From: an uncultured Phycisphaerales bacterium
Lineage (GTDB): Bacteria > Planctomycetota > Phycisphaerae > UBA1845
Assembly (NCBI GenBank): GCA_965371725.1
Contig: CBDUZO010000027.1
Span: 1 to 43,175 of the forward strand
Reading direction: 5' to 3'
Length of the DNA stretch: 43,175 nucleotides
The notes below the pieces were generated by a model. It was not told the DNA's origin and searched no databases. It saw only the letters and a list, made by a program, of their open reading frames with translations. Positions 8,643 through 38,705 of this stretch are shown one piece after another (position 1 is the first letter of the stretch; every line of letters begins with the position of its first letter). The position numbers and the translations under genes are program-made.

Positions 8643-8734
8643 GCGCTATCATCCGGGCAAGGCGGGACCGCGCGGAACGGCCGTAAGGGGATGTGGCTGC
8701 GTGGTGGCAAGCCCGCGCTGCTCAGTGAATTCCG

Positions 8735-10532: not shown

Positions 10533-10574
10533 CCCCCCTCTTTCCCCCCTTGTCAAGGGGGGATGAAAGGGGGG
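10533..10574. terminator. Long imperfect C6/G6-run hairpin 28 nt downstream of the top6A stop
   Basis: CCCCCCTCTTTCCCCCC-TTGTCAA-GGGGGGATGAAAGGGGGG. Inner C6/G6 arms pair perfectly; outer arms pair with an internal loop. No U-tract follows. Confidence 0.3.
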
Positions 10575-10601
10575 TTCCGCTACACGATTCCCGAAAACGC
10601 T

Positions 10602-11777
10602 CTAATCCAACCACTGTTTCTTGTCGCGCAGCTTCATGGGGGCGTATTGTTCGGTGAGGTAGCTGAGGTCCTTGCTGATCATGGCCTCGACTTCCATCTT
10701 AAAGCCGTTCGAGAGCATCTTCTTGATCTCTCGTTGCCACGGTCGCTTGGCTGCAAACCAGGGATAGTTGGCGATCTGCTTGGCGCGTTTGACATCGTTC
10801 GCATCGAGCGCGATCTTGACATCATCGCTCATGTCGCACCGATCGTAGTCGAAGCTCGAGACGCCGATGAACTTGGCATCGGGGACAGCCATCCGCCTGG
10901 ATTCATAGGCCAGGTTGATCGAGCCATGCTTGATGACGGAGTAGATGTAATATCCCCACGGGTCGTTATCGAGCAGGACGAAGACGGGCAGCTTCAATTC
11001 CTCGTGCATCCGCCTCAGCAATCGCCGCATCCCGCGAGCCGGCTGCCCGCCGCCGTGCGAGATGATGCAGTTGTGTGTCTGCCAGAAGCGATCCTCATGA
11101 AAGCGCCGCCAGACGGTGTCTTTTTCGACGTGCAGGATGAACTTGGCCGAGCACTTCTTGAATTGAATCACATCGGCTTCGACGATACTCGGCACGGCGT
11201 ATCCGGCGCTGCCCATCGCCGAGCAATCGAGCGTGCTCCCGTCGTCGACGAGCGTGATCGGCCCGACCATGTTCCCGCGGTTGCTGGCGAAGACGTGAAG
11301 CTGCTCACGGAGCGAGTCAATAGCGACTTCCAGGTCCTCGATGATCGGGTCGGACTCGCTCTGGTCGTCGAAGGTTTTCTCGTTGGTTCCCTTGATCGTA
11401 TGCTTGGCGAGATAGTAGATCTGACGGATGCTCGCGGTCTTGCCCATCTCGATGAGTTCTTTGCACTTCGACGCGACGAGCATCGTCTGCATGAACCGCT
11501 TGGCCTGACCGTAGTTGAAGAAGTTGCGCGTCTGCTTGCCGTCTCCCATTTCGACGTGGCGCGTGTGTTCGTTGTAGGAAACATTACTCAGCGAGCGAGT
11601 GGGGATGAGCACAGCCGGGTCCTGCTTTCGGTCGGCCATCGTCACGATGGACCTGGCCAACTCCTCCAGCCTCGGCCCGGCAGCGCCGTGACCGTCTCTC
11701 GGCGATCGGCGGGGTTTGGATCGTGCTGTTTTCTTCCCCGTAGCTTTCTTTTGGGTCGCTTTGATCTTCTTAGCCAT
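10602..11777 (-). CDS. top6A: DNA topoisomerase VI subunit A (Spo11/Top6A family)
   Basis: Catalytic-tyrosine motif RQIYY in the CAP/winged-helix domain. Toprim domain with HVEKDTVW and acidic DNDPWG motif. Length (391 aa) and domain order match archaeal Top6A. Has a lysine-rich N-terminal extension (MAKKIKATQKKATGKKTARSKPRR). Confidence 0.85.
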   Translation of the reverse strand: MAKKIKATQKKATGKKTARSKPRRSPRDGHGAAGPRLEELARSIVTMADRKQDPAVLIPTRSLSNVSYNEHTRHVEMGDGKQTRNFFNYGQAKRFMQTMLVASKCKELIEMGKTASIRQIYYLAKHTIKGTNEKTFDDQSESDPIIEDLEVAIDSLREQLHVFASNRGNMVGPITLVDDGSTLDCSAMGSAGYAVPSIVEADVIQFKKCSAKFILHVEKDTVWRRFHEDRFWQTHNCIISHGGGQPARGMRRLLRRMHEELKLPVFVLLDNDPWGYYIYSVIKHGSINLAYESRRMAVPDAKFIGVSSFDYDRCDMSDDVKIALDANDVKRAKQIANYPWFAAKRPWQREIKKMLSNGFKMEVEAMISKDLSYLTEQYAPMKLRDKKQWLD

Positions 11778-11855
11778 TGCGCCGCCTTCTTCCCTTCTGA
11801 GCCTTCCTAACGAGCCGCGGACATAAACCCGCGCGGACTGAAGTCCGCGGCCCTC

Positions 11856-13619
11856 TTACTTCCTGCGTTTCTTCCTACCCTTCCTGGTCTTCACTTTGGC
11901 GCGTTTGGGTTTTCTCCTGGTAGCCTGGGGTTCCGGGTCGGTGAAGAGGGCTTGCGGGCTTGGACGGGGTTCATCCTGCTCGACCACGATCGTGTCCGCC
12001 AGACCCAGGTCGTTGCCCGGGCGCCCTTTCTTGATTACCTTGCCGTGCTCGTCGAACTCGACGTCGGCTTGCGCGGTGTAGACCTTCGACAGGTCAATCA
12101 ATGATCTGCGGAAGTCATCCTTGTTGATCCGCGTGATGGCGTGCGTCGCGTTGACCACCTCGTCGATATAGCGCGTGAAGACATCGCGCCGCTTGCTGTG
12201 CGCCACCTTCTTGCGTTTGCGCCGAAGCAACATGCCCAACCGCCGGCTGCACTCGGCGATCCCAAGCCTGACTTCCTTGCGTATCTCGTCGTAATCGGCG
12301 ACGGCCTCCTTGCCCTCCGAGATGAACGGGACCCACACACTGGCCATGTGGATGAAGATGACCATCGGAGCCGTCGGCAAGGAGCCGCCCGACTGCGAGA
12401 TGCCATAATTGTTCCACTTCGTATCCACGACCGCCTTGAACATAGCGCAGGAACTCTGTTGATAGAGCAGCGGCACACGGTTGGCAAAGCGGATGACCCG
12501 GGCCTGCCGATGGCCCTTGCCGTTTTCATCACCGTCGCGATGATCCGAACCAAGCTCACCGCCGTAGGCCAACCCGACCTCGATTTGGAAGGGATTTCCA
12601 CGATAGACACTCGGCGGGCGCGTGCTGGCGGTGTAGAACTCCGCTTTGATGCCCTTGAGCAACCCGGTCAGGATTGCCTCCGCGCCCATCGGGGCGAGGC
12701 AGTTGGTCGACGGCGCCTTGAGCTTCGTCGCCTGAAGGACGTTGTACAGTCGCTCCGCCACCTGCGGCGTTACGGAGCTGACCCACGTGACCGCCGTAAT
12801 GCCAACCTCTTGGCACACTCTCTTCGCCACCGTGCCGCTGACGCGCGAGAACTCACCACTGAGAAACGCCCCGACTTTCTTGGCTTTGGTCTCCTTGAGC
12901 ATCTTCATCAGCGTACCCAGCTCGATGCCGTAGGGGTGCGGTTTGATCTCCGTCGTTTCCTTGGGCAACGTCTCCGTACCTCGTGGATGCTCGACGGTCT
13001 CGGCACCGGGCGGGTGATAGAGGAAGCGGGCATGCGGGTTGGCGATCGCCGTCAGTTCGAGATACTCGTCGACACTCTGGCGGCCCTTGTTGTGGCTGGC
13101 TTCCAACTCGATCGTCACTTCCGTACCGTGAGGCCAGTCAACCTCGACCACCTCCTCCGCGATGATGTCGGGGCGATTTTTCCTGGTATCGATGGCCAGC
13201 TTGTACATGTGTGCCTGTGAGCGGCTGGAGGTTCGACTGATGATGCGGATTGGTTTGCCCGTGGTGATCAGCCCATACATGCCGGCTGCACTGATTCCGA
13301 TTCCCTGCTGGCCACGGGACATCTTGAGGCGGTGGAACTTGGACCCGTAAAGCAGCTTGCCGAAGACGGGGGGTATCTGGCTCTTGACGATTCCCGGCCC
13401 GTTGTCATGGACGGACACGCTGAACCGGTCCTGGCCAGTCTGTCGGACTGTGATCTCGAGGTCGGGGAGGATGCCGGCTTCCTCGCAAGCGTCAAGACTG
13501 TTGTCGACCGCCTCCTTGACCGTGGTGAGCAGAGCCTTTCGCTTGTTGTCAAAGCCGAGAAGATGGCGATTCTTGGCAAAAAATTCCGAAACGGATATCT
13601 CGCGTTGCTGCTTGGCCAT
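11856..13619 (-). CDS. top6B: DNA topoisomerase VI subunit B (GHKL ATPase, Top6B)
   Basis: Bergerat-fold N-box EAVDNSLDA and G1-box DNGPGI. N-terminal SVSEFFAKNRHLLGF matches the canonical Top6B start. Transducer domain present, with a basic C-terminal tail RRKPKRAKVKTRKGRKKRRK. The ORF stays open upstream to 13817, so the true start may be 13619 (MAKQQ), 13760 or 13817. Confidence 0.85.
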   Translation of the reverse strand: MAKQQREISVSEFFAKNRHLLGFDNKRKALLTTVKEAVDNSLDACEEAGILPDLEITVRQTGQDRFSVSVHDNGPGIVKSQIPPVFGKLLYGSKFHRLKMSRGQQGIGISAAGMYGLITTGKPIRIISRTSSRSQAHMYKLAIDTRKNRPDIIAEEVVEVDWPHGTEVTIELEASHNKGRQSVDEYLELTAIANPHARFLYHPPGAETVEHPRGTETLPKETTEIKPHPYGIELGTLMKMLKETKAKKVGAFLSGEFSRVSGTVAKRVCQEVGITAVTWVSSVTPQVAERLYNVLQATKLKAPSTNCLAPMGAEAILTGLLKGIKAEFYTASTRPPSVYRGNPFQIEVGLAYGGELGSDHRDGDENGKGHRQARVIRFANRVPLLYQQSSCAMFKAVVDTKWNNYGISQSGGSLPTAPMVIFIHMASVWVPFISEGKEAVADYDEIRKEVRLGIAECSRRLGMLLRRKRKKVAHSKRRDVFTRYIDEVVNATHAITRINKDDFRRSLIDLSKVYTAQADVEFDEHGKVIKKGRPGNDLGLADTIVVEQDEPRPSPQALFTDPEPQATRRKPKRAKVKTRKGRKKRRK

Positions 13620-13849
13620 CGACTCAGCCGTGGTCCGGCCGCGCGCGGGAGTGGCGCGCGTGGCTCCCGGAATGGGAGGCGACGGCTTCCGGGTCGCTAA
13701 TCGACGGCTTGATGGCTTCTTTTCCGGCACGTCTGTGTCCAACTCCGGCGGGGGGAACATGAGGGCCAATTGGCCCTCCGGTGATGACGCTACTGTGGCG
13801 GGGGGTTCGGTTGCCATCCGTGGCTCTCCGGCAATACCCGGGTGCTCCC

Positions 13850-15896: not shown

Positions 15897-17003
15897 ATGA
15901 AACTTCGATTCAACCGACAAGAGATGGCGGATGCTCTCTCGGCTTTATGTCTGGTGGCAGCTGCACGTACCACGAAGGAAATCCTGAAGTGTGTTCGGGT
16001 GGAAGCCCAAGCCGACGTGCTGTTGTTGGCGGCCACGGATCTGGAGTTGAGCTTGCGCTGCGCGATCGCGCAGGTCGAGGTTGATGATCCCGGCGAAACG
16101 CTGGTGGTGGCTGATACGCTGGCGAAGATCGTGCGGGAGTGCACGGATGAAGTGCTCACCCTGGACACCGACGAGAGCATGCTGCACATTCGTGGCGCTG
16201 GAAGTCACTTTCAAATCGTCACGCAGGACGCGGCCGAGTTCCCACCGGTGCCCGTGATGGAGGGCGACCCCGGTTTCACGATCGAGGACGGCCAGCTTAC
16301 CCGGTTGATTGAGTGGACCGCGTTCGCGGCTGCAAGAGAGAGTACGCGCTATGCGATCAACGGTGTGCTGTGGGAGCTTGAGGGTGAGAAGCTGACAATG
16401 AGCGCAACCGATGGGCGCCGCTTGTCCGTCGGCAGGGCGCAGGTCCAAATCGGGGATTCGAACTCCGCCACCAGCGCGATCGTTCCGGGCAAGGCCCTTT
16501 CCGTTATCAGTCGGCTTTCCGTCGCGGATGACGCGATGGTCGGCGTGAAGATCACGGGCAATCAGTTGCTGCTTACCGTTGGCGGATCGCTGGTGGGGAC
16601 ATCGCTCCTGGAAGGTCGGTTCCCGAAGTACCAGGACGTGATTCCGACGGATTGTGACCGGAAGGCTCGCTTGAACTCTCTGGAGTTTCTTGGGGCGCTG
16701 AAACAGGCGGCGTTGTTGACCAACGAGGAGTCCAAGGGTGTCCGTCTGGCGTTTACCGAGGGGGTGCTCACCCTGTCAAGCCGCGCACCCGAGCAGGGAG
16801 AGGCTACGATCTCGATCCCCGCTGAGTACTCGGGTGAGCCCGTGGAGATCGGGTTTAATCCGGTCTTTCTGTTGGATATGTTACGTGTGGTCCGCACGGA
16901 TGAGGTCACAATCGAGCTCAAGGACGCGAACCGCCCCGGTGTGGTCCGGGTGGACGGTGATTTTGTCTATGTCGTGATGCCGGTCAGTCTTTCGTCGGCA
17001 TAG
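15897..17003 (+). CDS. dnaN: DNA polymerase III beta sliding clamp
   Basis: Three-domain beta-clamp. N-terminus MKLRFNRQEMADALSALCLVAAART is typical for DnaN, and it directly follows dnaA. Confidence 0.95.
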   Translation: MKLRFNRQEMADALSALCLVAAARTTKEILKCVRVEAQADVLLLAATDLELSLRCAIAQVEVDDPGETLVVADTLAKIVRECTDEVLTLDTDESMLHIRGAGSHFQIVTQDAAEFPPVPVMEGDPGFTIEDGQLTRLIEWTAFAAARESTRYAINGVLWELEGEKLTMSATDGRRLSVGRAQVQIGDSNSATSAIVPGKALSVISRLSVADDAMVGVKITGNQLLLTVGGSLVGTSLLEGRFPKYQDVIPTDCDRKARLNSLEFLGALKQAALLTNEESKGVRLAFTEGVLTLSSRAPEQGEATISIPAEYSGEPVEIGFNPVFLLDMLRVVRTDEVTIELKDANRPGVVRVDGDFVYVVMPVSLSSA

Positions 17004-17018
17004 AACCGGTGGGTTGTA

Positions 17019-17402
17019 GTGGCTGATGATGACCGCTTGAAGTGGGTTCAGAGGAATCGAACCCGGCGTGATCGGGTACAGCAAGCCGGGACGCTCTTGG
17101 CGCGGTTGGTGAAGCGCGTAGCGGTTGATGGTGCGTCGTCGGGAATCGCAGCCGCCCTGGCAGGCGTGGTTGACGAGGAGTTTCGGAAGCATTGTCGGAT
17201 CGGCGGCGTGCGCTCGGGGACGCTCATGATCAGCGTGGACGAAGCTTCCTTGGCCTACACGATGCGCATGCAATGGCTGGCTCCTCTGTCCAAGGCACTG
17301 TCGGCCCGTGCGGGGATCGGGCCGATCGACCGGATCGCGTTCGAGTTCGGGCATGCCGGGGTGCGTGTGCCGGCGCGCGAAGATCAACCGGTGCGGGATT
17401 GA
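17019..17402 (+). CDS. DUF721 family protein (DciA-like helicase-loader candidate)
   Basis: Small basic protein in the conserved dnaN-X-gyrB position that DUF721/DciA genes occupy. Weak similarity to the DUF721 consensus (RIGGVRSGTLMISVDEASLAYTMRMQ). Confidence 0.5.
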   Translation: MADDDRLKWVQRNRTRRDRVQQAGTLLARLVKRVAVDGASSGIAAALAGVVDEEFRKHCRIGGVRSGTLMISVDEASLAYTMRMQWLAPLSKALSARAGIGPIDRIAFEFGHAGVRVPAREDQPVRD

Positions 17403-17448
17403 CAACGGTTTACGTGTTTGTTTGCCTTTTTTTGGGCCGCTCGAATGA

Positions 17449-20037
<2,589 letters not shown>

Positions 20038-20045
20038 CGCGCCGC

Positions 20046-20060
20046 GCCCGGGCACCGGGC
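20046..20060. terminator. Short GC hairpin (GCCCGG-GCA-CCGGGC) between convergent gyrB and DUF1015 genes
   Basis: Perfect 6-bp palindrome read from the sequence. No U-tract follows. Confidence 0.2.
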
Positions 20061-20134
20061 AAGCTCCACATCGACACAACGATGGTCATTCTCGCGGGCA
20101 GCCTGCAGCGCCCGCGCTCGTGGACCCTTGCGCC

Positions 20135-21379
20135 TCACGCCAGCGGGTTGAGGGTCATGCCTGTGGCGAGTTTGGGGTAGAAGTAGGTGCTTTTTTGGGG
20201 CATCAGGCCGCCGGCTTCGCTGACCGCGCGGAGGTGCGCCATGGGCGTGGCTTTCACCAGCAGCGCGACGCCCGACTCATCCCGTGCCGCCCTCTTGGCA
20301 TCGTCGGCCGACTTGACCCATCGGACTGTCGGAGTCTTGCCGCCGAGCTTCCGCGTGAGCAGTTCGTCGATCAGATACCGATGCAGGTAGGCGTAGTCGA
20401 GGTCGTACCAGGGTTCGCACTGATCCGGCTCAAGTGTCTTGAGCTTGGCACGATCCGTGAACCGCAGGGCGGCCTCCTTCCCGGTCGAGCCCTCGTGCAG
20501 AACGATGTCGGCTTCCTCGCCCGAGGCCGGAGCCGTCCCGGCAGACAGAGCGTCCGTCAGCGTCGCGAGGTCGATGTCGGTGATCGTCCGGTTGTACGGG
20601 AGGATCAGGCAACCCGGATCATCCATGCTCGCCAGGACGAACATCACATAATTGGCGGGGTGGTCCGCCGGCAGGGAGCCGCCTTGCCGTGACGTGAGCC
20701 AATCGCGGTAGAGCAGGGCCGTGCCGTAGCGGTGGTGGCCGTCGGCAATGTAGATTTTCTTGTCGGCCATCTCCCGCGCGACGCCGGCGATGACATCCGT
20801 GTCGGAGACGACCCAAAGCTGGTTTGCGACGCCGTCGATATCCGCCGTCACGGTTGGTGCGGTAGAGGCCGTGGCTGCAAAAGCCTTGCCGATTCGATCC
20901 TCCGGGTCGGCGTACAGGCCGAAGATGGGAGAGAGTTGACACTTCGTGGCCTTCATCAGTGCGAGCCGATCTTCCTTCGGCCCGCCGAAAGTCTTCTCAT
21001 GCGGGAGGACCGTGCCTTCCGAGAAAGGTGCGAGCCGCACGCGGGCGATGTATTTCCTGCGCGTGTAGGACTTGCCCTCACACGTGAAGCGCTGGTGATA
21101 GAGGTAGAGTGCGGGTCTTTCCTCGCGGATGAGCGTGCCCTCGTCGAGCCAGGCGGCGAGCGTCCTGGCGGCGTTGTCATAGACCTCCGCCGGTCCCGCG
21201 GACTTGGGGGGGATGTGTGGCAGGTCGATGGCCACGATGTTGTGATCGCTCCTTCCGAGCAGGGAGTCCTTGTCGGTCTGGTCGAGCACGTCGTACGGCG
21301 GGGCGATCAGCTTGGACACATCGCCAAGGGTGTTCGTCTGGTCGAAACGGATGGCGCTGAACGGTGTAATCTCCGGCAT
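20135..21379 (-). CDS. DUF1015 family protein
   Basis: Hallmark YIADGHHRY motif and length typical of DUF1015. Start taken at MPEITPF; the ORF extends to 21451. Confidence 0.7.
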   Translation of the reverse strand: MPEITPFSAIRFDQTNTLGDVSKLIAPPYDVLDQTDKDSLLGRSDHNIVAIDLPHIPPKSAGPAEVYDNAARTLAAWLDEGTLIREERPALYLYHQRFTCEGKSYTRRKYIARVRLAPFSEGTVLPHEKTFGGPKEDRLALMKATKCQLSPIFGLYADPEDRIGKAFAATASTAPTVTADIDGVANQLWVVSDTDVIAGVAREMADKKIYIADGHHRYGTALLYRDWLTSRQGGSLPADHPANYVMFVLASMDDPGCLILPYNRTITDIDLATLTDALSAGTAPASGEEADIVLHEGSTGKEAALRFTDRAKLKTLEPDQCEPWYDLDYAYLHRYLIDELLTRKLGGKTPTVRWVKSADDAKRAARDESGVALLVKATPMAHLRAVSEAGGLMPQKSTYFYPKLATGMTLNPLA

Positions 21380-32730: not shown

Positions 32731-32801
32731 TCCCGACGCCTGGAATCGAACCAGGGTCACCTGGTCCACAGCCAGGTGTTCTGCCGCTAAACTACGTCGG
32801 G
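32731..32801 (-). tRNA. tRNA-His(GTG)
   Basis: Cloverleaf read from the reverse complement. Acceptor CCCGACG/CGTCGGG, anticodon loop CTGTGGA, T-loop GGTTCGATTCC, discriminator A73, no encoded G-1. Confidence 0.8.
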
Positions 32802-32835
32802 GCAGCAAGACGGACAAGGCCCGGTCGTTCAGCAA

Positions 32836-32907
32836 TGTGCGGAGGTGGATTCGAACCACCGGCGCTCGGCTCTTCAGGCCGACGCTCTACCACTGAGCTA
32901 TCCGCAC
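32836..32907 (-). tRNA. tRNA-Phe(GAA)
   Basis: Acceptor GTGCGGA/TCCGCAC, D-arm TAGCTCAGTGGTAGAGC, anticodon loop CTGAAGA, T-loop GGTTCGAATCC. Confidence 0.85.
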
Positions 32908-33008
32908 GCAAACGGAAGACGGTGGACACGATCCACAAGCCCGCGGGCTCCGCCCGCTTTCAAGGCAAGGGCCGCCCCAAACGGCGATTTCATCTTCCAA
33001 GCTCACGA

Positions 33009-33079
33009 TAGGGACGAGGGGAATTGAACCCCTGACTCGAGCTTGAAGGGCTCGCGTGCTACCACTACACCACGCCCCC
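33009..33079 (-). tRNA. tRNA-Glu(TTC)-like with unusual anticodon loop CCTTCAA
   Basis: Canonical D and T arms, and an anticodon stem CGAGC/GCTCG. Position 33 is C instead of U, and the acceptor stem has two G-U pairs. Confidence 0.5.
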
Positions 33080-33146
33080 ACAATGGAAGGATGAAGCATG
33101 AACACAGGTTCATTCGTCCGCGCATCAGCCTGTCCTCCTGGCCAAA

Positions 33147-33216
33147 CGACCCGTGGGGGAGTTGAACCCCGGTACGACCGTGACAGGGTCGCGTGTTTCC
33201 GCTACACCAACGGGCC
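33147..33216 (-). tRNA. tRNA-Asp(GTC)
   Basis: Acceptor GGCCCGT/ACGGGTC, anticodon stem CGACC/GGTCG with loop CTGTCAC. Slightly irregular variable-loop/T-stem junction; 70 nt. Confidence 0.65.
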
Positions 33217-33220
33217 ACAC

Positions 33221-33294
33221 TCAGGGCGGGTGGGCTCGAACCACCGACCTCTCCCGTCCGAGGGGAGCGACCTGCCAGACTGGCCTACGCCCTG
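33221..33294 (-). tRNA. tRNA-Pro(CGG)
   Basis: Acceptor CAGGGCG/CGCCCTG, anticodon stem CTCCC/GGGAG, loop CTCGGAC. Confidence 0.85.
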
Positions 33295-33303
33295 TAATTC
33301 AAC

Positions 33304-33376
33304 TCAGGGTAGGAGGATTCGAACCTCCGGCCTCGCGGTCCCAAGCCGCGCGCTCTGCCTACTGAGCTACACCCTG
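33304..33376 (-). tRNA. tRNA-Pro(TGG)
   Basis: Acceptor CAGGGTG/TACCCTG, anticodon stem CGCGG/CCGCG, loop CTTGGGA, T-loop GGTTCGAATCC. Confidence 0.85.
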
Positions 33377-33426
33377 CCGATTTGATGCCTTCATCCTTCT
33401 GCTTTCATCCTTCATCCTTGTTGATG

Positions 33427-33499
33427 AGACTGGGACCGGATTCGAACCGGCAATCTGCGGAGCTGCGATCCGCCGCCTTACCAGTTTGGCTACCCAGTC
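33427..33499 (-). tRNA. tRNA-Cys(GCA)-like with non-canonical anticodon loop TCGCAGC (possible pseudogene)
   Basis: Perfect acceptor GACTGGG/CCCAGTC and T-arm. Anticodon stem GCGGA/TCCGC, but the loop has C33 and G37. Confidence 0.45.
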
Positions 33500-34051
33500 A
33501 GCGCAACAAAAAAACCGGACAACCCATCGGATCGCCCGGCTTGCTGATGCCTACTTCTCGTGTCAGAACCTACGCACGCAGCCTCCCCGGGCGATCCGTT
33601 GGATCGCTTTCGTGCTCACATGAGCAAAATCGGGTTGGCCAGGTTACGTTCAACATCGTGCTTATAATATACACGCCAACCATGGCTTGGTCAAGTGACT
33701 TTTGTACGACTTTGCCTTTTCCCTGCGCCGCCGACCTGCGTCCGAGGTGATAAAGGTCGCGGAGGTCTCGGCCCCTCTACCGAGTGAGCCGAAGACGCTA
33801 CGTTCAGGCGTGGCAGAGCTTCACGGTTCGGTATCCTACCCGGACCTCGTACTCGACTGTTGCTTCGCTGAGGATTCCCCTGGGGTTTGGCGTGATCACG
33901 TAGTGACCAAGTTTCTTGAACTTTCTCCTTGACTTGGCGTTATAGTGAGGTATGTTTAGTAGTTCAGTTAGTCTCTAGCGACAGAAGGAATCGCAACGTG
34001 CAAAGGTTCGACCGACATTGGCATCCCGCGGTGGCCAACCCCATGACACAT

Positions 34052-34133
34052 GGGGGCGGAACCGCTCTGGGAAGCGGGTCGGTTTCCAAAGCCGATGCCT
34101 TCGCGCTGGGGAGTTCGATTCTCCACGCCCCTG
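34052..34133 (+). pseudogene. tRNA-like element (Trp CCA-like anticodon loop TTCCAAA) with aberrant geometry
   Basis: 7-bp acceptor GGGGGCG/CGCCCCT, D-arm CCGC-TCTGGGAA-GCGG, T-loop GTTCGATTC. An extra nucleotide lies between acceptor and D-stem, the variable region is 11-13 nt, and the T-stem is 4 bp. 82 nt. Confidence 0.3.
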
Positions 34134-34525
34134 TACTACTTTACGCAACGATAGGTCAAGGCAGGATGTGCCTGAACTTGCCGGTCGTCGCCGCCAAGTA
34201 GCCCAGCATCGCTCCGAGTTTTAAAGCGTTTAGGCTGTTTGGCGGCGAATGAGCGCCTGTACTGTGCGTGCACATACGGCGGGTGATACCGCTGCAGTCT
34301 GTGTGCGCGCACGTGTATGGAATGATGGAGAATCAGTCTTCCGGAAGAAAGGCTGACAAGCCTTGCGCCGGAGGTGCGCGCGTGAGCATAACAGTCGGTC
34401 CATTGTAACGTGACCGCTGCAGCTCCTGTATTCGTGTGGAGGTGGGCGGTCGAGGGATCTTCACTGATAAGACGGATCGGTCGCCGCAGGAGATATGTAG
34501 CTTGCCCTATCGCCTATCGAACGAA

Positions 34526-34598
34526 GCGGCGGTAGCCCAACGGCAGAGGCATCGGACTTAAATTCCGAGCAGTGCGGGTTCGAATCCCGCCCGCCGCA
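34526..34598 (+). tRNA. Class-I tRNA with anticodon TAA (leucine UUA-type anticodon on a short-variable-loop body); isotype uncertain
   Basis: GCGGCGG-TA-GCCC-AACGGCA-GAGGC-A-TCGGA-CTTAAAT-TCCGA-GCAGT-GCGGG-TTCGAAT-CCCGC-CCGCCGC-A. 73 nt, 5-nt variable loop, A73. Confidence 0.7.
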
Positions 34599-34604
34599 GC
34601 AAGA

Positions 34605-34677
34605 GGCCAAGTAGCCCAACGGCAGAGGCAGACGGTTCAGAACCGTCTCAGTGTAGGTTCGAATCCTACCTTGGCCA
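34605..34677 (+). tRNA. Class-I tRNA with anticodon CAG (leucine CUG-type anticodon on a short-variable-loop body); isotype uncertain
   Basis: GGCCAAG-TA-GCCC-AACGGCA-GAGGC-A-GACGG-TTCAGAA-CCGTC-TCAGT-GTAGG-TTCGAAT-CCTAC-CTTGGCC-A. The D-arm is identical to the neighbouring TAA tRNA. Confidence 0.7.
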
Positions 34678-34688
34678 TTTGGCGCCAG

Positions 34689-34769
34689 GCGCTCGTGGCG
34701 AAAGGGAAGACGCACCGCCTTGAGTGGGCGGCGGGGAGACCCGTGAAGGTTCGAATCCTTCCGAGCGCA
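34689..34769 (+). tRNA. tRNA-Leu(GAG), class II with long variable arm
   Basis: Acceptor GCGCTCG/CGAGCGC, anticodon stem CCGCC/GGCGG with loop TTGAGTG, 13-nt variable arm CGGGGAGACCCGT, T-loop GGTTCGAATCC. 81 nt. Confidence 0.85.
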
Positions 34770-34888
34770 GTGCGGGATAGAGCGGTTGTGAGCTCGTCGG
34801 TTTCATGATAGCGGATTCCGAATCCGTGTAGCGATCGATGTCACAGAACGCCCGGGCGCGATGACCGATTGACGGCCACGTGAAAAAG

Positions 34889-34934
34889 AGCTTGCTCTAG
34901 CCGGAGGTCGAGGGTTCGAATCCCTCTCCCGCTA
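34889..34934 (+). pseudogene. tRNA 3'-half remnant (T-arm GAGGG-TTCGAAT-CCCTC plus acceptor 3' strand TCCCGCTA) without a matching 5' half
   Basis: Canonical T-arm and acceptor 3' strand are present, but no complementary 5' acceptor strand, D-arm or anticodon arm lies upstream. Confidence 0.3.
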
Positions 34935-34957
34935 TTCGTGGCAACGTGACCAGAGTG

Positions 34958-35028
34958 GTCGTCGTGGTGTAGCGGCAGCACATGACCTTGCCATGGTCAT
35001 AGCGCGGGTTCGAGTCCCGCCGACGACT
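34958..35028 (+). tRNA. tRNA-Gly(GCC)
   Basis: Acceptor GTCGTCG/CGACGAC, anticodon stem TGACC/GGTCA with loop TTGCCAT, T-loop GGTTCGAGTCC. Confidence 0.85.
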
Positions 35029-35122
35029 TGACTGGCGACGTGGAGGTAGGGTTCGCGCTTGACGACCACGGACAGCCGCGCGTGTATAGCAAGCAGGTGC
35101 GCGAGCGAGCACCACACAAGCT

Positions 35123-35195
35123 GCCGGCGTAGTTCAATGGGTAGAACGCCGCTCTTGTATGGCGGAGGCTGTGGGATCGTGGCCCACCGCCGGCT
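35123..35195 (+). tRNA. tRNA-Thr(TGT)
   Basis: Acceptor GCCGGCG/CGCCGGC, anticodon stem CCGCT/GGCGG with loop CTTGTAT. The T-loop is ATCGTGG (A54 instead of T). Confidence 0.75.
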
Positions 35196-35200
35196 GTGAT

Positions 35201-35271
35201 GTCGCTGTGGTGTAGCGGGAACACACCAGGCTTCCAACCTGGGATCGAGGGTTCAATCCCCTCCGGCGACT
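35201..35271 (+). tRNA. tRNA-Gly(TCC)
   Basis: Acceptor GTCGCTG/CGGCGAC, anticodon stem CCAGG/CCTGG with loop CTTCCAA, T-loop GGTTCAATCC. Confidence 0.85.
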
Positions 35272-35276
35272 TGTGT

Positions 35277-35349
35277 GCTGACGTAGCTCAATCGGCAGAG
35301 CGGCTGCCCCGTAAGCAGCAGGTTGCAGGATCGTTGCCTGCCGTCAGCT
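35277..35349 (+). tRNA. tRNA-Thr(CGT) with C33 in the anticodon loop
   Basis: Acceptor GCTGACG/CGTCAGC, anticodon stem GCTGC/GCAGC with loop CCCGTAA, T-arm GCAGG-ATCGTTG-CCTGC. Confidence 0.65.
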
Positions 35350-35361
35350 TTGGACTCGCGT

Positions 35362-35433
35362 GGGCCGTTAGCTCAGCGGTAGAGCGGAACGCTTATAACG
35401 TTCAGGCGGTAGGTTCGACTCCTACACGGCCCA
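35362..35433 (+). tRNA. tRNA with anticodon TAT (would read AUA; tRNA-Ile(UAU)-like)
   Basis: Acceptor GGGCCGT/ACGGCCC, D-arm TAGCTCAGCGGTAGAGC, anticodon stem GAACG/CGTTC with loop CTTATAA, T-loop GGTTCGACTCC. Confidence 0.7.
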
Positions 35434-35455
35434 GACAACAGAAGGAGCAGTGAAG

Positions 35456-35539
35456 ATGAAACGTATCGCCAAATGTAAGCGAACGGATGGTTTGTCTACA
35501 CGGGTCGGTAGCTTAACCGGCAAAGCGCGCGGCTCTTAA
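35456..35539 (+). CDS. 27-aa ORF (MKRIAKCKRTDGLSTRVGSLTGKARGS) with a strong Shine-Dalgarno, inside the tRNA array
   Basis: AAGGAG at 35442..35447, an 8-nt spacer, then ATG. It overlaps the 5' part of tRNA-Lys(CTT). It may be fortuitous or a gene remnant. Confidence 0.15.
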   Translation: MKRIAKCKRTDGLSTRVGSLTGKARGS

Positions 35540-35574
35540 CCGCGGAGCTAAGGGTTCGACTCCCTTCCGACCCA
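35502..35574 (+). tRNA. tRNA-Lys(CTT)
   Basis: Acceptor GGGTCGG/CCGACCC, anticodon stem CGCGG/CCGCG with loop CTCTTAA, T-arm AAGGG-TTCGACT-CCCTT. Confidence 0.85.
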
Positions 35575-35582
35575 TTCGTCGC

Positions 35583-35655
35583 GGGCCGGAAGCTCAATTG
35601 GCCGAGCAGCGGGCTTTTAACCCGCAGGTTGTGGGTTCAACTCCCACCCGGCCTA
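35583..35655 (+). tRNA. tRNA-Lys(TTT)
   Basis: Acceptor GGGCCGG/CCGGCCT, anticodon stem GCGGG/CCCGC with loop CTTTTAA, T-arm GTGGG-TTCAACT-CCCAC. Confidence 0.85.
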
Positions 35656-35669
35656 CTGAAAACCAACGC

Positions 35670-35743
35670 GGGGCCGTAGCCTAATCCGGGAAGGCACCTG
35701 GTTTGCACCCAGGATATTACTGGTTCGAGTCCAGTCGGCTCCA
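35670..35743 (+). tRNA. tRNA-Ala(TGC)
   Basis: Acceptor GGGGCCG/CGGCTCC containing a G3-U70 wobble pair (a G3-U70 pair is the classical alanine identity element, although its presence here rests on a single read of the stem), anticodon stem CCTGG/CCAGG with loop TTTGCAC. Confidence 0.85.
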
Positions 35744-35760
35744 TAGGAGTGACGGTCGAA

Positions 35761-35833
35761 AGGTGCGTAGCTCAGTTGGCCAGAGCAGCTTCTTACAAAG
35801 AGAAGATCGCTGGTTCGATTCCAGCCTCGCCTA
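35761..35833 (+). tRNA. tRNA-like gene with ambiguous anticodon arm (ACA with a weak stem, or CAA with A33)
   Basis: Canonical D-arm TAGCTCAGTTGGCCAGAGC and T-arm GCTGG-TTCGATT-CCAGC. The acceptor has one C-U mismatch. The anticodon region CTTCTTACAAAGAGAAG folds only in non-standard ways. Confidence 0.4.
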
Positions 35834-35840
35834 GTCGGAA

Positions 35841-35913
35841 AGGCTCGAAGCTCAATGGGATGAGCACCTGTCTACGAAACAGGAGGCTGAAGGTTCGAAT
35901 CCTTCCGGGCCTA
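35841..35913 (+). tRNA. tRNA-Arg(ACG)
   Basis: Acceptor AGGCTCG/CGGGCCT, anticodon stem CCTGT/ACAGG with loop CTACGAA, T-loop GGTTCGAATCC. Confidence 0.85.
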
Positions 35914-35919
35914 TGGGAA

Positions 35920-35992
35920 GGGCCGGTGGCGCAACGGACAGCGCGGGAGCCTTCTAAGCTCACGGTTGTAGGTTCGACTCCTACTCGGCCCG
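35920..35992 (+). tRNA. tRNA-Arg(TCT)
   Basis: Acceptor GGGCCGG/TCGGCCC, anticodon loop CTTCTAA, T-arm GTAGG-TTCGACT-CCTAC. Confidence 0.8.
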
Positions 35993-35993
35993 T

Positions 35994-36065
35994 CGCCCCG
36001 TAGCTCAAAGGAAGAGCGCCGGCGTCCGAAGCCGGGGGCTGCAGGTTCGAGTCCTGCCGGGGTGG
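35994..36065 (+). tRNA. tRNA-Arg(CCG)
   Basis: Acceptor CGCCCCG/CGGGGTG, anticodon stem CCGGC/GCCGG with loop GTCCGAA, T-loop GGTTCGAGTCC. Confidence 0.75.
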
Positions 36066-36070
36066 TCGGA

Positions 36071-36143
36071 GCAGCGGTAGCCCAACGGCAGAGGCAGCCG
36101 GCTCAAACCCGGCCAAGTGTAGGTTCGACTCCTACCCGCTGTA
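36071..36143 (+). tRNA. Class-I tRNA with anticodon CAA (leucine UUG-type anticodon on a short-variable-loop body); paralog of the 34526 and 34605 tRNAs
   Basis: GCAGCGG-TA-GCCC-AACGGCA-GAGGC-A-GCCGG-CTCAAAC-CCGGC-CAAGT-GTAGG-TTCGACT-CCTAC-CCGCTGT-A. The same D-arm TAGCCCAACGGCAGAGGCA as the other two. Confidence 0.7.
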
Positions 36144-36161
36144 GTGTGAGGCAGTGGGCAC

Positions 36162-36233
36162 GCGCCTGTAGCTCAGTGGTGGAGCGCACCCCTGATAAGG
36201 GTGAGGCCGATGGTTCAATCCCATCCGGGCGCA
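36162..36233 (+). tRNA. tRNA-Ile(GAT)
   Basis: Acceptor GCGCCTG/CGGGCGC, anticodon stem CACCC/GGGTG with loop CTGATAA, T-loop GGTTCAATCC. Confidence 0.85.
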
Positions 36234-36295
36234 TGAGGCGACGGTGCGATTTGTATGAGGGTCTGCCTGAGGAAGCATTTGCCGGATGAGCAGGA

Positions 36296-36367
36296 AGTCG
36301 GATAGCTCAGTGGCAGAGCAGGCGTTTCATGAGCGCTGTGTCGGTGGTTCGATTCCACCTCCGACTA
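36296..36367 (+). tRNA. tRNA-Met(CAT), elongator type (or tRNA-Ile2 if C34 is lysidinylated)
   Basis: Paired 1-72 (A-T), acceptor AGTCGGA/TCCGACT, anticodon loop TTCATGA, T-loop GGTTCGATTCC. Confidence 0.75.
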
Positions 36368-36372
36368 TGAGC

Positions 36373-36444
36373 GGGGCGGAAGCTCAACGGATGAGCGGCG
36401 GCTTCCTAAGCCGACGGCTGCGGGTTCGAGTCCTGCGCGCCCCA
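36373..36444 (+). tRNA. tRNA-Arg(CCT)
   Basis: Anticodon loop TTCCTAA, T-loop GGTTCGAGTCC. The acceptor GGGGCGG/GCGCCCC has one mismatch at position 7-66. Confidence 0.7.
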
Positions 36445-36482
36445 GATGGAGTGCTCGACAGCTTGCCCCATATGCCCGGTAG

Positions 36483-36554
36483 TGGCAAGTAGCTCAATGG
36501 CGGAGCGCCTCACTGTTAATGAGGAGGCTGTGGGTTCGAGTCCCACCTTGCCAG
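36483..36554 (+). tRNA. tRNA-Asn(GTT)
   Basis: Acceptor TGGCAAG/CTTGCCA, anticodon stem CCTCA/TGAGG with loop CTGTTAA, T-loop GGTTCGAGTCC. Confidence 0.85.
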
Positions 36555-37014
36555 TCGGGGTGGTGCTCCTCACGGCGACCCGTAAAGCCGTTGTCGTAAA
36601 ACAAGTGGGGTGGTCGACGAGTGGTTCGATTCCTCCGCCGCCCAGTGAGAAGAGAGAGTGAATGAGATGGTCACGCAGCGACAAGATAGCATGGTTCGTG
36701 TCGAAGACGCAGTTGACCGCATGCATGCACGCTTGCGCCTGCTGTCAGTATTGGCGACCTGCGCATATGAGGCTCTAAGCTGGTGGTTTGGGGGCCTATG
36801 ATGTTGTTGAGTCTTCAGTATTGGATGGTGACAAGGGCTCCGCGGCCGGCATGCCGGAAGGCTAACGCCACGATTGTGGTTGGACTCCGGCGCGCCGGTT
36901 TCAGGGGTTATTAGATTGGGTTTGGCCGATGTGCCGGTATTGTGCCGGCGGCGCACTTTGCATCCAGTGGATTTCGCAACGTGTGTTCCGTGAACGGCAT
37001 CGGAAGCAATATCG

Positions 37015-37097
37015 GTTCTTGGATGCTCGAGGCACGAGCGCAGACTGAAGAAGTCTGTCACTTGATGGTGACGCAGGTTCGATTCCTGCCCAGACTA
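37015..37097 (+). pseudogene. tRNA-like pseudogene (class-II-like: D-arm, anticodon-like hairpin, hairpin variable arm, T-arm) lacking a pairing acceptor stem
   Basis: GCTCG-AGGCA-CGAGC D-arm-like hairpin, CAGAC-TGAAGAA-GTCTG, variable hairpin GTCAC-TTGATG-GTGAC, T-arm GCAGG-TTCGATT-CCTGC. The terminal segments do not pair. Confidence 0.25.
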
Positions 37098-37170
37098 CGA
37101 CGGATAGCTCAATGGGTAGAGCACGCGTCCAAGAAACGCGATGTCGCGGGTTCGAATCCCGCTCCGAACC
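37098..37170 (+). tRNA. tRNA-like gene with anticodon loop CCAAGAA (AAG) and a poorly paired acceptor stem, possibly a pseudogene
   Basis: Canonical D-arm TAGCTCAATGGGTAGAGC and T-arm GCGGG-TTCGAAT-CCCGC, with anticodon stem CGCGT/ACGCG. Only 4 of 7 acceptor pairs form (CGACGGA vs TCCGAAC). A perfect hairpin GGCAACT-GTGA-AGTTGCC follows. Confidence 0.35.
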
Positions 37171-37571
37171 GGCAACTGTGAAGTTGCCAACAACAAGCAG
37201 GTTGTGGGAGTGATTCAGCGCTTGGCCGGTCGATGAGGGCGCAGCTCCGGACCCAGCATGGATTCCGGAGCGAAGGCATGGGGTCAGAGACGTCATGCAC
37301 CCTCATCGACACCGCGCGCGTGGCTTTGCAGTCGAGTGGATACCGGCGAACCACATTGCCAACACCTTGATCGGTTGTATGCCGGCGGCATCAGCCGGAT
37401 AAGGTCGCGGCGATCACTGGTTCGTCTCAAGCTCGACTCCGCCGCAAACGCGGGGCTGATCGTGGGAATCACCCTTCAACTTGCGGATTCGAGGTTTCTC
37501 GCTCCGTGCGGGGCGATGGTGATAAATCGAGGTCAGATTCGAGACACATACAGAAAGGAGGTGACTCGAAC

Positions 37572-38705
37572 ATGTTGGGACTCACAAGGATTAAGTCTTA
37601 CGAGAGGGGTCTGCGGTTCCGCTACGGCGAATTCGTCAGCCTCCTGGGTCCGGGCAAGTACCGTCTCTGGAGCAGGCTGTGCAGCGCCACGCGCGATCGC
37701 ATTGACGTGGTGAACATGCTTTCGACCAGGTTCGAACACCCGATCCTGGACGTGCTGATCCAGAACCGGGCGTTGCGGGACGCGTTGACGATCGTCGAGC
37801 TTGCGGACAATGAACGTGCGCTGATCTGGAAGGATGGCCGACTGGCCTACATCCTTGGCCCGGGTCGTCACGCCTTCTGGAACGAGCCGTACAAGCTCGA
37901 CGTGGAGGTCTTCGACACGAACACGCTGCGCTTCGAGCACGCCAAGATGGAGGCCATCGTGTCCTTCCCGGGCAGCTCGAAGTGGTTGGTCGGCGTGGAC
38001 GTGGCTGAGTATGAAGACACGCTGTTGATCAAGGACGGCGAGATCGTCGAGAAGCTCGGCAAGGGCCGTCATGTGTTCTGGGCCAACGTCGGTCGTGTGA
38101 CCTGGAAGGTCATTGACCGCCGTGAGCAGGTCGCCGACGTCGCCGGTCAGGAGATCATGACCAACGACAAGGTGACGCTGCGCGTCAACCTGCTGGTGAC
38201 CTACCAGGTGGTTGACTCGATCAAGGCGGTCACCGTCGTCAACGACCATGCTCAGGCGTTGTACCGCGAGGCGCAGCTCGCACTGCGAGCCGCAGTCGGT
38301 ACGCGGCCGCTGGATGCGTTGCTGGCGGACAAGGAATCCGTCGGCGGCGAGGTCAAGAACGCACTCGCATCGCGTGCGAGCGAGTTCGGTGTGGCCGTGC
38401 GCAGCGTCGGCCTGAAGGACATCATCCTGCCGGGTGAGATGAAGGTGATTCTGAACCAGGTCATCGAGGCGGAGAAGCAGGCCGAGGCCAACCTGATCCG
38501 CCGTCGGGAAGAGACGGCCGCAGCGCGAAGCCAGGCCAACACGGCGAAGCTGCTCGCGGAGAACCCGACCCTGGCCCGGATGAAGGAGCTGGAGGTCCTT
38601 GCGGAGATTCTGAGCGGTACGCGGTCAACGTTCGTGTTCGGCAACGGCGACCTGTCCGACCAGATCCGCGGTCTGACAGCCGGCGCGTCTGACAAGGATG
38701 CGTGA
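37572..38705 (+). CDS. SPFH/band-7 (stomatin/prohibitin-like) domain protein with a triplicated N-terminal motif
   Basis: AAGGAGG SD upstream of ATG 37572. The C-terminal half matches the SPFH domain (EIMTNDKVTLRVNLLVTYQVVDSIKAV...GLKDIILPGEMKVILNQVIEAEKQAEANLIRRRE). The N-terminal half holds three ~70-aa repeats each ending in LGPG/LGKG-x-H/Y-x-FW. No TM helix is evident. Confidence 0.8.
   Translation: MLGLTRIKSYERGLRFRYGEFVSLLGPGKYRLWSRLCSATRDRIDVVNMLSTRFEHPILDVLIQNRALRDALTIVELADNERALIWKDGRLAYILGPGRHAFWNEPYKLDVEVFDTNTLRFEHAKMEAIVSFPGSSKWLVGVDVAEYEDTLLIKDGEIVEKLGKGRHVFWANVGRVTWKVIDRREQVADVAGQEIMTNDKVTLRVNLLVTYQVVDSIKAVTVVNDHAQALYREAQLALRAAVGTRPLDALLADKESVGGEVKNALASRASEFGVAVRSVGLKDIILPGEMKVILNQVIEAEKQAEANLIRRREETAAARSQANTAKLLAENPTLARMKELEVLAEILSGTRSTFVFGNGDLSDQIRGLTAGASDKDA

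Follow-up and report, generated by a model that had tools for sequence, protein, structure and literature searches.

The locus described here raises the question of whether a dense cluster of tRNA genes on a planctomycete chromosome belongs to the core tRNA complement of its host or represents a laterally acquired, supernumerary set, and how it relates to the slipin gene located downstream of it. The cluster was identified on contig CBDUZO010000027.1 (assembly GCA_965371725.1) of an uncultured Phycisphaerales bacterium; the whole stretch analyzed, 43,175 bases in length, is designated the window. Two systems bear on this question. Long, non-periodic, laterally spread and supernumerary tRNA arrays, termed L-arrays, were identified in several phyla including the Planctomycetes (Santamaria-Gomez et al. 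2021, PMC8421152). A tRNA-like RNA, designated b7a-tRNA, was predicted by Burroughs and Aravind (2016, NAR 44:8525) to be the partner of Band-7 proteins encoded beside RtcB, a prediction referred to here through a citing preprint and experimentally unvalidated (bioRxiv 10.1101/312249). The L-array and the Band-7/b7a-tRNA module are both already described, and their co-regulation is known in one cyanobacterium. Taken by itself, the array of the window is very probably an accessory array of the L-array type. A composite, in which an array of this kind is expressed under stress together with a b7a-tRNA/slipin module and lies in the slot of rtcBA, is the probable explanation for the locus as a whole; for the functional coupling of the array to the Band-7 module in this genome, the arguments are about evenly balanced.

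The searches for tRNA genes covered all 43,175 bases and were carried out with ARAGORN and with the Rfam tRNA model RF00005 at gathering score. By ARAGORN, 28 tRNA genes were identified, seven on the minus strand and 21 on the plus strand, all of them located between 32731 and 36554 and none in the other 38.7 kb. RF00005 likewise gave 28 matches with scores of 45-73 bits, all within 32731-37166 and none in the rest of the window. The dense array on both strands, which had been proposed from a reading of the sequence alone (referred to as the sequence-only reading), is therefore real. The two lists differ at two places: an 84-nt 'Trp(cca)' gene at 34051-34134 was called only by ARAGORN, and 37101-37166 was matched only by Rfam. 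The array consists of 27 cloverleaf tRNA genes in two divergent arms, with seven genes on the minus strand and 20 on the plus strand, so that the earlier count of seven stands and the earlier minimum of 17 becomes 20. Beyond these 27 genes, three degenerate members are present, namely a Sec-like gene with a CCA anticodon, an interrupted tRNA-Met and a decayed pseudo-tRNA.

In the minus arm (32731-33499, minus strand; ARAGORN and RF00005, 45-73 bits), the order of transcription is Cys(GCA), Pro(UGG), Pro(CGG), Asp(GUC), Glu(UUC), Phe(GAA), His(GUG). The main plus arm (34526-36554, plus strand; ARAGORN and Rfam) starts with Leu(UAA), Leu(CAG), a class II Leu(GAG), Gly(GCC), Thr(UGU), Gly(UCC), Thr(CGU), Ile(UAU), Lys(CUU) and Lys(UUU), and continues with Ala(UGC), a Val-like 'Leu(CAA)' with A33, Arg(ACG), Arg(UCU), Arg(CCG), Leu(CAA), Ile(GAU), Met(CAU), Arg(CCU) and Asn(GUU). 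Altogether, 16 amino acids and about 26 anticodons are covered. The isotype list of the sequence-only reading was essentially right, including its statement that no Ser, Tyr, Val or Gln gene is present (ARAGORN, Rfam). The spacers between the tRNA genes, estimated earlier as 2-70 nt, were measured as 0-187 nt, except for a gap of 391 nt located 3' of the Sec-like gene. The plus arm, with its 20 canonical genes and the Sec-like gene (34052-36554), shows the L-array trait of about 20 or more close, co-oriented tRNA genes. The isotype order is non-repeating, and the best identity within the array is 64-79%. Since no two members are more than 79% identical, the array is neither an assembly artefact or a collapsed repeat nor the product of a recent tandem amplification. 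Peculiarities were also observed in single canonical members. Both tRNA-Thr genes (35123-35195 and 35277-35349) have a T-loop with A54...U58 (ATCGTGG and ATCGTTG) and not T54...A58, which corresponds to a swapped reverse-Hoogsteen pair. The tRNA-His gene (32731-32802) has A73 and a C at position -1, and is without an encoded G-1:C73 identity pair, which is usual in bacterial tRNA-His.

For comparison, loci with slipin orthologues were fetched, 80 of them from species-representative genomes, 61 from metagenomes and 2 from IMG/VR, and were labelled L001 onward. The near relatives are all metagenome-assembled genomes of Planctomycetota/Phycisphaerae, and one protein, P0001, is 100% identical to the window slipin. 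By tblastn against all loci, three architectures were distinguished. In type A (L001-L005, L081), rtcR is divergent from an operon with the order (tRNAs)-rtcB-rtcA-leader-slipin, and a tRNA-His gene follows slipin in L003-L005. In type B (L044, L047, L057, L060, L067, L075, L094), rtcR is divergent from b7a-slipin-tRNAs-rtcB-rtcA. In type C (L016, L020, L024, L027, L028, L033, L040, L059), slipin lies within arrays of 25-38 tRNAs that extend to both sides of it, accompanied by an HNH gene and a divergent RtcB in six of the eight loci, by RtcB only in L027 and by HNH only in L033. The RtcB of type C (L020 7554-8786; L027 5704-7095) is a divergent paralogue with about 25% identity to the RtcB of type A. 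The type C arrays belong to one Phycisphaeraceae clade and have a conserved order across several species; the synteny of their flanks is not conserved.

By clustering of slipin identities, the window was placed inside the type A clade, with the large arrays all in one other clade and type B in a third. The identity to the window slipin is 0.85 for L081, 0.83 for L001, 0.82 for L082, 0.79 for L002 and 0.76-0.77 for L003-L005. The closest long relative, L081, has the order rtcR (divergent), rtcB, rtcA, followed by slipin and its leader elements E0, TL1 and b7a-tRNA, which are described below. In six members of the window's clade, rtcA stands directly upstream of E0; tRNA genes are found at this place only in the window and in L083. 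The distribution of the array is patchy, with rtc genes and no array at the orthologous position in the nearest slipin relatives (L081, L001, L002, L003-L005). The synteny check proposed with the sequence-only reading was thereby answered: the array is not conserved at its position, and rtcR, rtcB and rtcA occupy the slot in those of the closest relatives for which the upstream sequence is long enough. Beyond slipin and its leader, the first 80 loci showed no synteny with the window, including those with a slipin identity of 79-83%. The location of the array in the rtcBA slot of its relatives suggests that replacement and repair may be alternative cassettes.

The tRNA genes themselves are divergent. 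Pro(UGG), His and Lys(UUU) of the window share 64-70% identity with their same-anticodon counterparts in L003-L005, L083 and L081, and the corresponding genes of L003-L005 are 85-100% identical among themselves. The best same-anticodon identity between the window and any other array is 70-89%. For 15 genes of the window, the codons that are readable by the array anticodons amount to about 71%; no array tRNA serves the Ser, Val, Tyr and Gln codons or the frequent codons GCC, ACC and CCC, and dedicated tRNAs are present for the rare ATA, TTA and AGA, each of which makes up 2-4% of its own codon family. Because the array set reads only about 71% of the codons, further tRNA genes must exist in the genome. 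The absence of the array in the closest relatives, the divergence of its tRNAs and the codon coverage fit an acquired, divergent extra set.

The Leu-anticodon genes provide a further character. The sequence-only reading had mentioned three oddities with Leu anticodons; four genes of 73 nt were counted, located at 34526 (UAA), 34605 (CAG), 36071 (CAA) and 35761 ('CAA'). The gene at 35761 carries A33 in the anticodon loop and is most closely related to Val(UAC) genes from other arrays. The other three are class-I (73-nt) Leu tRNAs with the D-arm GTAGCCCAACGGCAGAGGC and A73, and share the D-arm GTAGCCCAA..GGCAGAGGC and A73 with the Leu(CAA) gene of the Anabaena trn array (L147:1513). This class-I Leu type (D-arm GTAGCCCAAnnGGCAGAGGC, A73) recurs in the Phycisphaeraceae arrays, in small Rtc-linked clusters, in the phage contig L144 and in Anabaena trn Leu(CAA), and the short Leu genes of the type B and type C loci and of L144 have D-arm and A73 as in the window. 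The Anabaena array contains four Leu-anticodon genes of 75-78 nt, and its Leu(CAA) has the D-arm GTAGCCCAATTGGCAGAGGC and A73, like the three short Leu genes of the window. To our knowledge, bacterial housekeeping tRNA-Leu all have a long variable arm and none is class I. Because the class-I Leu tRNA is a shared derived character, a common origin of these arrays can be argued. Judged from the sequences, the short Leu tRNAs are a hallmark of the array family and not a sign of local decay. Long arrays of Planctomycetes were already reported (PMC8421152). In the literature searched, no discussion of the class-I Leu signature of arrays was found. The possibility that the short Leu tRNAs are Gln-derived or reads of the wrong strand was rejected, with the T-loops in plus orientation and other short Leu genes as the nearest relatives.

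The IMG/VR locus L144 (IMGVR_UViG_3300007072_000340) carries 36 tRNAs, an HNH gene, b7a-tRNA and slipin at 4905-11101 and 16648-20142, and no RtcB. Its further genes encode a large terminase subunit (300 bits), a portal protein and a topoisomerase of phage type. L144 is thus a genuine phage contig with the array module, and the module therefore travels in phages, too. With the absence in relatives, the tRNA divergence, the class-I Leu type and L144, the proposal of an accessory, horizontally spread array type is supported.

The prototype of the L-arrays is the trn operon on plasmid delta of Anabaena/Nostoc sp. PCC 7120, which is silent until translation is impaired and for which 23 of the 26 tRNAs were shown to be aminoacylated in vivo (PMC8421152). 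An HNH gene precedes this array, and rtcB is co-regulated with it (PMC8421152). The TrcR regulon comprises trn, the HNH gene all8564, rtcB and alr0739-alr0740, with alr0740 coding for a slipin (PMC10272220). Like the Anabaena array, the array of the window consists of more than 20 dense, non-periodic tRNA genes with a patchy distribution and some pseudogenes, and in both, Leu tRNAs of class-I length with the D-arm signature and A73 are present. The association with HNH, RtcB and slipin is one of co-regulation in Anabaena and of physical linkage in the relatives of the window. However, the window array has two divergent arms and is chromosomal, whereas that of Anabaena is a single operon on a plasmid. 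The window array is directly fused to a b7a-tRNA/slipin leader and has Ile(UAU), but no genes for Ser, Tyr, Val and Gln, all four of which are represented in Anabaena. Neither HNH nor RtcB is encoded on the window contig, and no TrcR-type regulator of the ribbon-helix-helix family was found there; linked HNH and/or RtcB genes, a trait of L-arrays, are found in type C loci, in L144 and in Anabaena, but not in the window.

The slipin gene (37572-38705, plus strand) encodes an SPFH/Band-7 protein of 377 amino acids (Pfam Band_7, E = 1e-29). While classical stomatin/slipin proteins have a hydrophobic membrane anchor, no membrane segment was predicted for the window slipin, for which the highest 19-residue hydropathy is 1.34. 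The anchor-less slipin would be consistent with a role as a cytoplasmic scaffold. Neither slipin nor RtcB was assigned to a defence system by PADLOC.

Upstream of slipin, a tRNA-like RNA is located at 37099-37171 (plus strand), designated TL2, which represents the b7a-tRNA. It was missed by ARAGORN and corresponds to the Rfam tRNA match at 37101-37166 (51.4 bits, model positions 4-67). The window b7a-tRNA folds into a cloverleaf in which the D- and T-arms are conserved and the anticodon loop, CCAAGAA, is unconstrained. Of the slipin loci compared, 99 have a tRNA-like call by ARAGORN 250-660 nt upstream of slipin, extending to soil-metagenome orthologues with 44-46% protein identity. The 'anticodons' assigned to them by ARAGORN include nearly every possible one, and also impossible loops of 2 or 4 nt. 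In an alignment of 60 sequences, the D- and T-arms are invariant, the anticodon stem and the 6-bp acceptor stem covary, the loop is free and an A-CCA tail is often encoded. For this alignment, 95.1% of the cells of the cloverleaf are paired, as compared to 67.5% in shuffles and 32-44% with partners slid, and compensatory changes were identified in 17 of the 20 pairs. The structure of the b7a-tRNA is genuine and conserved.

In the window's clade, the leader contains additional elements. It starts with a conserved hairpin, E0 (36934-37010, plus strand), identified by locus comparison and RNAalifold, with an identity of 79-86% in L001, L003-L006, L081-L083 and L140 and of 71% in L002; its fold has 26 pairs, four of them with compensatory changes. 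It is followed by TL1 (approximately 37015-37096, plus strand), a class-II-like tRNA mimic with a long variable arm, which was recognized by its orthologues and by covariation. TL1 has the anticodon loop UGAAGAA without U33 and an acceptor stem of about 4 bp. Its orthologues in L002, L004-L006, L081-L083 and L140, in which the anticodon and variable-arm stems covary, are labelled Stop, Leu or Phe at random by ARAGORN. By their orthology across the clade, TL1 and b7a-tRNA are assigned to the slipin leader and not to the array. Of the aberrant tRNA-like sequences that had been attributed to the array, the two 3'-most ones are these leader elements. A weak match to YrlA (31.8 bits) spans the TL1/TL2 junction.

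Between b7a-tRNA and slipin, a leader of about 400 nt (37172-37571, plus strand; from the open reading frame (ORF) list and RNAalifold) ends in the Shine-Dalgarno sequence GAAAGGAGG. The consensus fold of six orthologues (RNAalifold) has an energy of -114 kcal/mol, shows compensatory changes in 31 of its 94 pairs and includes a long-range closing helix of about 37197-37220 with about 37463-37490. The 400-nt leader may represent a structured RNA of large size that is joined to the b7a-tRNA. The leader motif CACCCTNCAAC is confined to the closest clade, and the fold for the soil clade was uninformative, the sequences being too alike. A small 'alr0739'-like ORF between b7a-tRNA and slipin was considered and rejected: no conserved ORF is present, and an overlapping ORF of 151 amino acids is out of frame with slipin.

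For the composite reading, two divergent transcription units around a control region of 0.5 kb are proposed. The minus-arm leader (33500-33694, minus strand) was delineated by consensus scan, inverted repeat and fold. It contains a sigma-70-like promoter at 33694-33666 (TTGACC-17-TATATT) and, directly before tRNA-Cys, a terminator-like hairpin with a U-tract at 33542-33512. An upstream segment, 33587-33602, is complementary to one arm of this terminator, and the fold of the 163-nt leader has a z-score of -3.67. No conservation of the minus-arm leader was found in any fetched locus. It looks like an attenuator, in which either the terminator hairpin or the longer competing helix would form, an arrangement that would suit conditional expression. 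For the plus arm, a weak consensus match at 33929-33956 (TTGACT-16-TATGTT, plus strand) is a candidate for a sigma-70-like promoter, and the Sec-like gene is the first gene after it. From this control region at 33.9 kb, the plus arm would be transcribed with read-through into E0, TL1, b7a-tRNA, the 400-nt leader and slipin; the read-through is proposed because no recognizable plus-strand terminator was found between the array and the slipin leader by consensus scan.

By analogy to Anabaena, the trigger would be translational stress or tRNA damage, caused for example by ribotoxins, anticodon nucleases or ribosome-targeting antibiotics. The array would then supply a second tRNA set, divergent in sequence from the housekeeping set and including the class-I Leu tRNAs and Ile(UAU), which would replenish the tRNA pool or act as decoys for nucleases, and the slipin/b7a-tRNA module would take part in the same response. 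Gene content, intact cloverleaves, the orthology of leader and slipin, the patchy distribution, the linkage to Rtc, HNH and RtcB in relatives and in a phage, and the class-I Leu signature in common with Anabaena are established from the sequences; co-transcription with slipin, stress induction, aminoacylation, redundancy with housekeeping tRNAs and the physiological role are inferred.

Several observations weigh against the composite. No rtcR, rtcB, rtcA or HNH gene was found on the 43-kb contig (tblastn with HNH and both RtcB types). The contig is also without a sigma-54 promoter, so that the promoter and divergent rtcR by which an RtcR/sigma-54 regulon is recognized are both missing from it: no TGGCAC-N5-TGC site is present in any intergenic part of the array, and the sole strong match in the window, located inside tRNA-Ala, was rejected as a promoter. 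Because the contig has neither rtc or HNH genes nor a sigma-54 promoter, the link of the window to RNA repair comes from the slipin leader only. The matches to promoter and terminator consensus sequences occur at about chance frequency. No mobility gene, direct repeat boundary or compositional break was identified at the array. In addition, array members are decayed, and the acceptor stem of the window b7a-tRNA is weakened to 4 bp, as compared to 6 bp in most orthologues, with a CCG tail in place of CCA; part of the locus may be eroding.

The degenerate members raise the first alternative, that the locus is a silent, decaying and functionless relic of a mobile or phage-borne array which has lost its HNH and RtcB genes. 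The Sec-like gene (34052-34132, plus strand; ARAGORN 'Trp(cca)', 84 nt) has a long variable arm and the anticodon CCA, not UCA; it aligns over its full length to the tRNA-Sec model RF01852 with 42.2 bits against a gathering score of 47, and fails RF00005. It opens the plus arm. The tRNA-Met(CAU) at 34771-34934 (plus strand; ARAGORN, intron option) is interrupted by a 91-nt insert at position 38, the canonical 37/38 intron site, and its 3' half is 93% identical to the Met(CAU) gene of L079. This gene represents either a pseudogene or a gene with an intron, and is of note because the arrays of relatives carry the RtcB ligase. The insert is below the typical length of a group I intron. The decayed pseudo-tRNA (36557-36650, plus strand), located 3' of tRNA-Asn and recognized by reading of the sequence, was called neither by ARAGORN nor by Rfam; acceptor-like pairing is left, and the T-stem is poor. 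The block of tRNA-Asn and pseudo-tRNA is found with 85% identity over 165 nt in L083, which also holds a decayed Met-like copy in common with the window.

These three members, the A33 loop at 35761 and the weakened b7a-tRNA would be expected of a relic, as would the missing HNH and RtcB, which are companions of such arrays elsewhere, and L083, which apparently retains only remnants of the same array end. L-arrays were also long viewed as cryptic (PMC8421152). However, 23 of the 27 array tRNA genes reach at least 54 bits with RF00005 and have intact stems, and the slipin ORF is intact and 76-85% identical to that of relatives. Moreover, a compensatory change from U-A to C-G in the T-stem separates tRNA-Asn from its orthologue in L083 and indicates selection for structure. 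A functionless relic is therefore considered unlikely.

Somewhat less plausible still is a core housekeeping tRNA cluster, built by accretion and located near dnaA so as to obtain a high gene dosage. The contig is chromosomal and origin-adjacent: dnaA, dnaN and gyrB lie at 14-20 kb, the cumulative GC-skew minimum at 14-15 kb, at dnaA, marks the replication origin, and the array is about 18 kb away from dnaA. The genes of the window include aroB, a Mur ligase gene, those for both subunits of topoisomerase VI, queC, tgt-yajC, and genes for a DUF2201 metallopeptidase and HEAT-repeat proteins. A flank of foreign composition, as had been suggested earlier, was not confirmed, with a G+C content of the array (0.57-0.60) that is only slightly lower than that of the flanks (0.59-0.64), and with ordinary flanking genes (tgt-yajC, queC, topoisomerase VI, HEAT-repeat). 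This setting, the strong cloverleaf scores of most genes and the conserved order of the 25-38-tRNA arrays across several species of one Phycisphaeraceae clade would be compatible with a housekeeping function. Against it stand the closest relatives, which have no array at this locus and tRNAs that are 64-70% identical to those of the window, and the Leu-anticodon genes, four of five of which lack a long variable arm. A core set would also hardly leave the Ser, Val, Tyr, Gln, GCC, ACC and CCC codons unread, yet serve ATA, TTA and AGA.

An integrated prophage or integrative element, the tRNAs of which would serve the element itself, for example in counter-defence against tRNA-cleaving host systems, is highly improbable: it could draw on L144 with its terminase, portal protein and topoisomerase beside 36 tRNAs, HNH, b7a-tRNA and slipin, and on the homing endonucleases known beside phage tRNA arrays, such as T4 SegB (cited in PMC8421152), but no phage, integrase, transposase or insertion sequence (IS) domain was found in the window ORFs tested, including the flanking ones in which an IS-like fragment about 6 kb away had been proposed, the search of phage and plasmid collections for near-identical DNA with 30-40 kb of the window, as suggested with the sequence-only reading, gave chance tRNA matches only, the annotated phage collection INPHARED contains no match to the window slipin, plasmid matches are distant (36-43%), and both flanks consist of typical planctomycete chromosomal genes.

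The accessory array in composite with the b7a-tRNA/slipin module thus remains the favored reading. Of the 12 loci of types A and B that were scanned, ten have a perfect -24/-12 site (TGGCAC-N5-TGC) between rtcR and the operon; in L081 and L094, none was found. In L003-L005, the sigma-54 site lies upstream of an Arg-Pro-Gln-Leu-Leu tRNA block followed by rtcB, and in six loci of type B the b7a-tRNA begins about 230 nt downstream of it. The tRNAs within these RtcR/sigma-54 operons were located between promoter and rtcB in L003 (4747-5493), L004 (2385-3355) and L005 (1247-2667), and between slipin and rtcB in L060 (11161-11606) and L067 (11171-11666), where they comprise Pro, short-Leu, Arg, Gln and His. 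In L060, neither a sigma-70-like site nor a credible plus-strand terminator was found from b7a through slipin and the five tRNAs to rtcB. A protein of about 360 amino acids without Pfam match is encoded beside slipin or between rtcB and rtcA in L027 (11165-12247), L004 (6764-7579), L005 (6007-6834), L033 (10690-11466), L038 (3597-4529) and L057 (13052-14032), and may be a further component of the system.

A wider proposal is that the L-array tRNAs, HNH, RtcB/RtcA, b7a-tRNA with its leader and the soluble Band-7 protein are parts of one modular, laterally moving 'translation rescue' system, in which the cassettes for replacement and repair are interchangeable and in which the array has displaced rtcBA in the window. 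This is put forward only tentatively, with the doubts outweighing the support. If it were true, the relatives with a few L-array-type tRNAs in RtcR/sigma-54 operons would be intermediate forms.

The comparison to the known systems shows likeness and difference alike. As in the Band-7/b7a-tRNA module, to the extent that it is known from the citing preprint, a tRNA-like gene with close resemblance to a true tRNA precedes a Band-7 gene, and RtcB, RtcA and RtcR are adjacent in the closest relatives; RtcB adjacent to Band-7/b7a was found in type A (L002-L005, L081), in type B and in the RtcB-bearing type C loci. In the window, a tRNA array takes the place of RtcB, which is not adjacent. Set beside the module as it is known from the same source, the window's clade has in addition the class-II-like mimic, the E0 hairpin and the 400-nt structured leader. 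In the rsr-yrlBA-rtcBA locus of Salmonella with its tRNA-like YrlA RNA (PMC7790460), the arrangement resembles that of the relatives, in which rtcR is divergent from a sigma-54 promoter that serves rtcB-rtcA as well as a tRNA-like RNA and a putative scaffold protein. The relatives differ from it in that no Ro/Rsr gene is present and slipin stands in the place of Ro, and in that the RNA is a complete cloverleaf and not a Y RNA; the window has neither rtc genes nor a sigma-54 site. With phage tRNA arrays like the T4 segB region, the loci share packed tRNA genes and an HNH or homing endonuclease, and the module of L144 is the same as that of the bacterial loci, whereas the window has no phage genes and no relative in INPHARED.

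The physiology of long tRNA arrays was studied by experiment mainly in one cyanobacterium, and the b7a-tRNA/Band-7 module is a prediction. The loci described here unite the two in a single genomic frame that spans Phycisphaerae, soil bacteria and a phage and comprises arrays fused to b7a-tRNA/slipin, arrays with embedded RtcB and HNH, and small sets of array-type tRNAs in sigma-54/RtcR operons. The physical fusion of arrays to b7a-tRNA/slipin, the presence of array-type tRNAs in RtcR/sigma-54 operons, the class-I Leu signature across phyla and the extra leader RNAs seem to be under-described so far. From this frame, it would be predicted that tRNA damage induces the array tRNAs together with slipin, that LeuRS charges the class-I Leu tRNAs and that the array tRNAs resist or titrate anticodon nucleases. 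For annotation, it implies that tRNA-like calls beside slipin genes, with an 'anticodon' that differs from genome to genome, are to be taken as non-decoding.

Outside the array and the slipin locus, the genes for the A and B subunits of topoisomerase VI, an archaeal/eukaryotic-type enzyme that is uncommon in bacteria, were identified directly upstream of dnaA at 10602-13817 on the minus strand.

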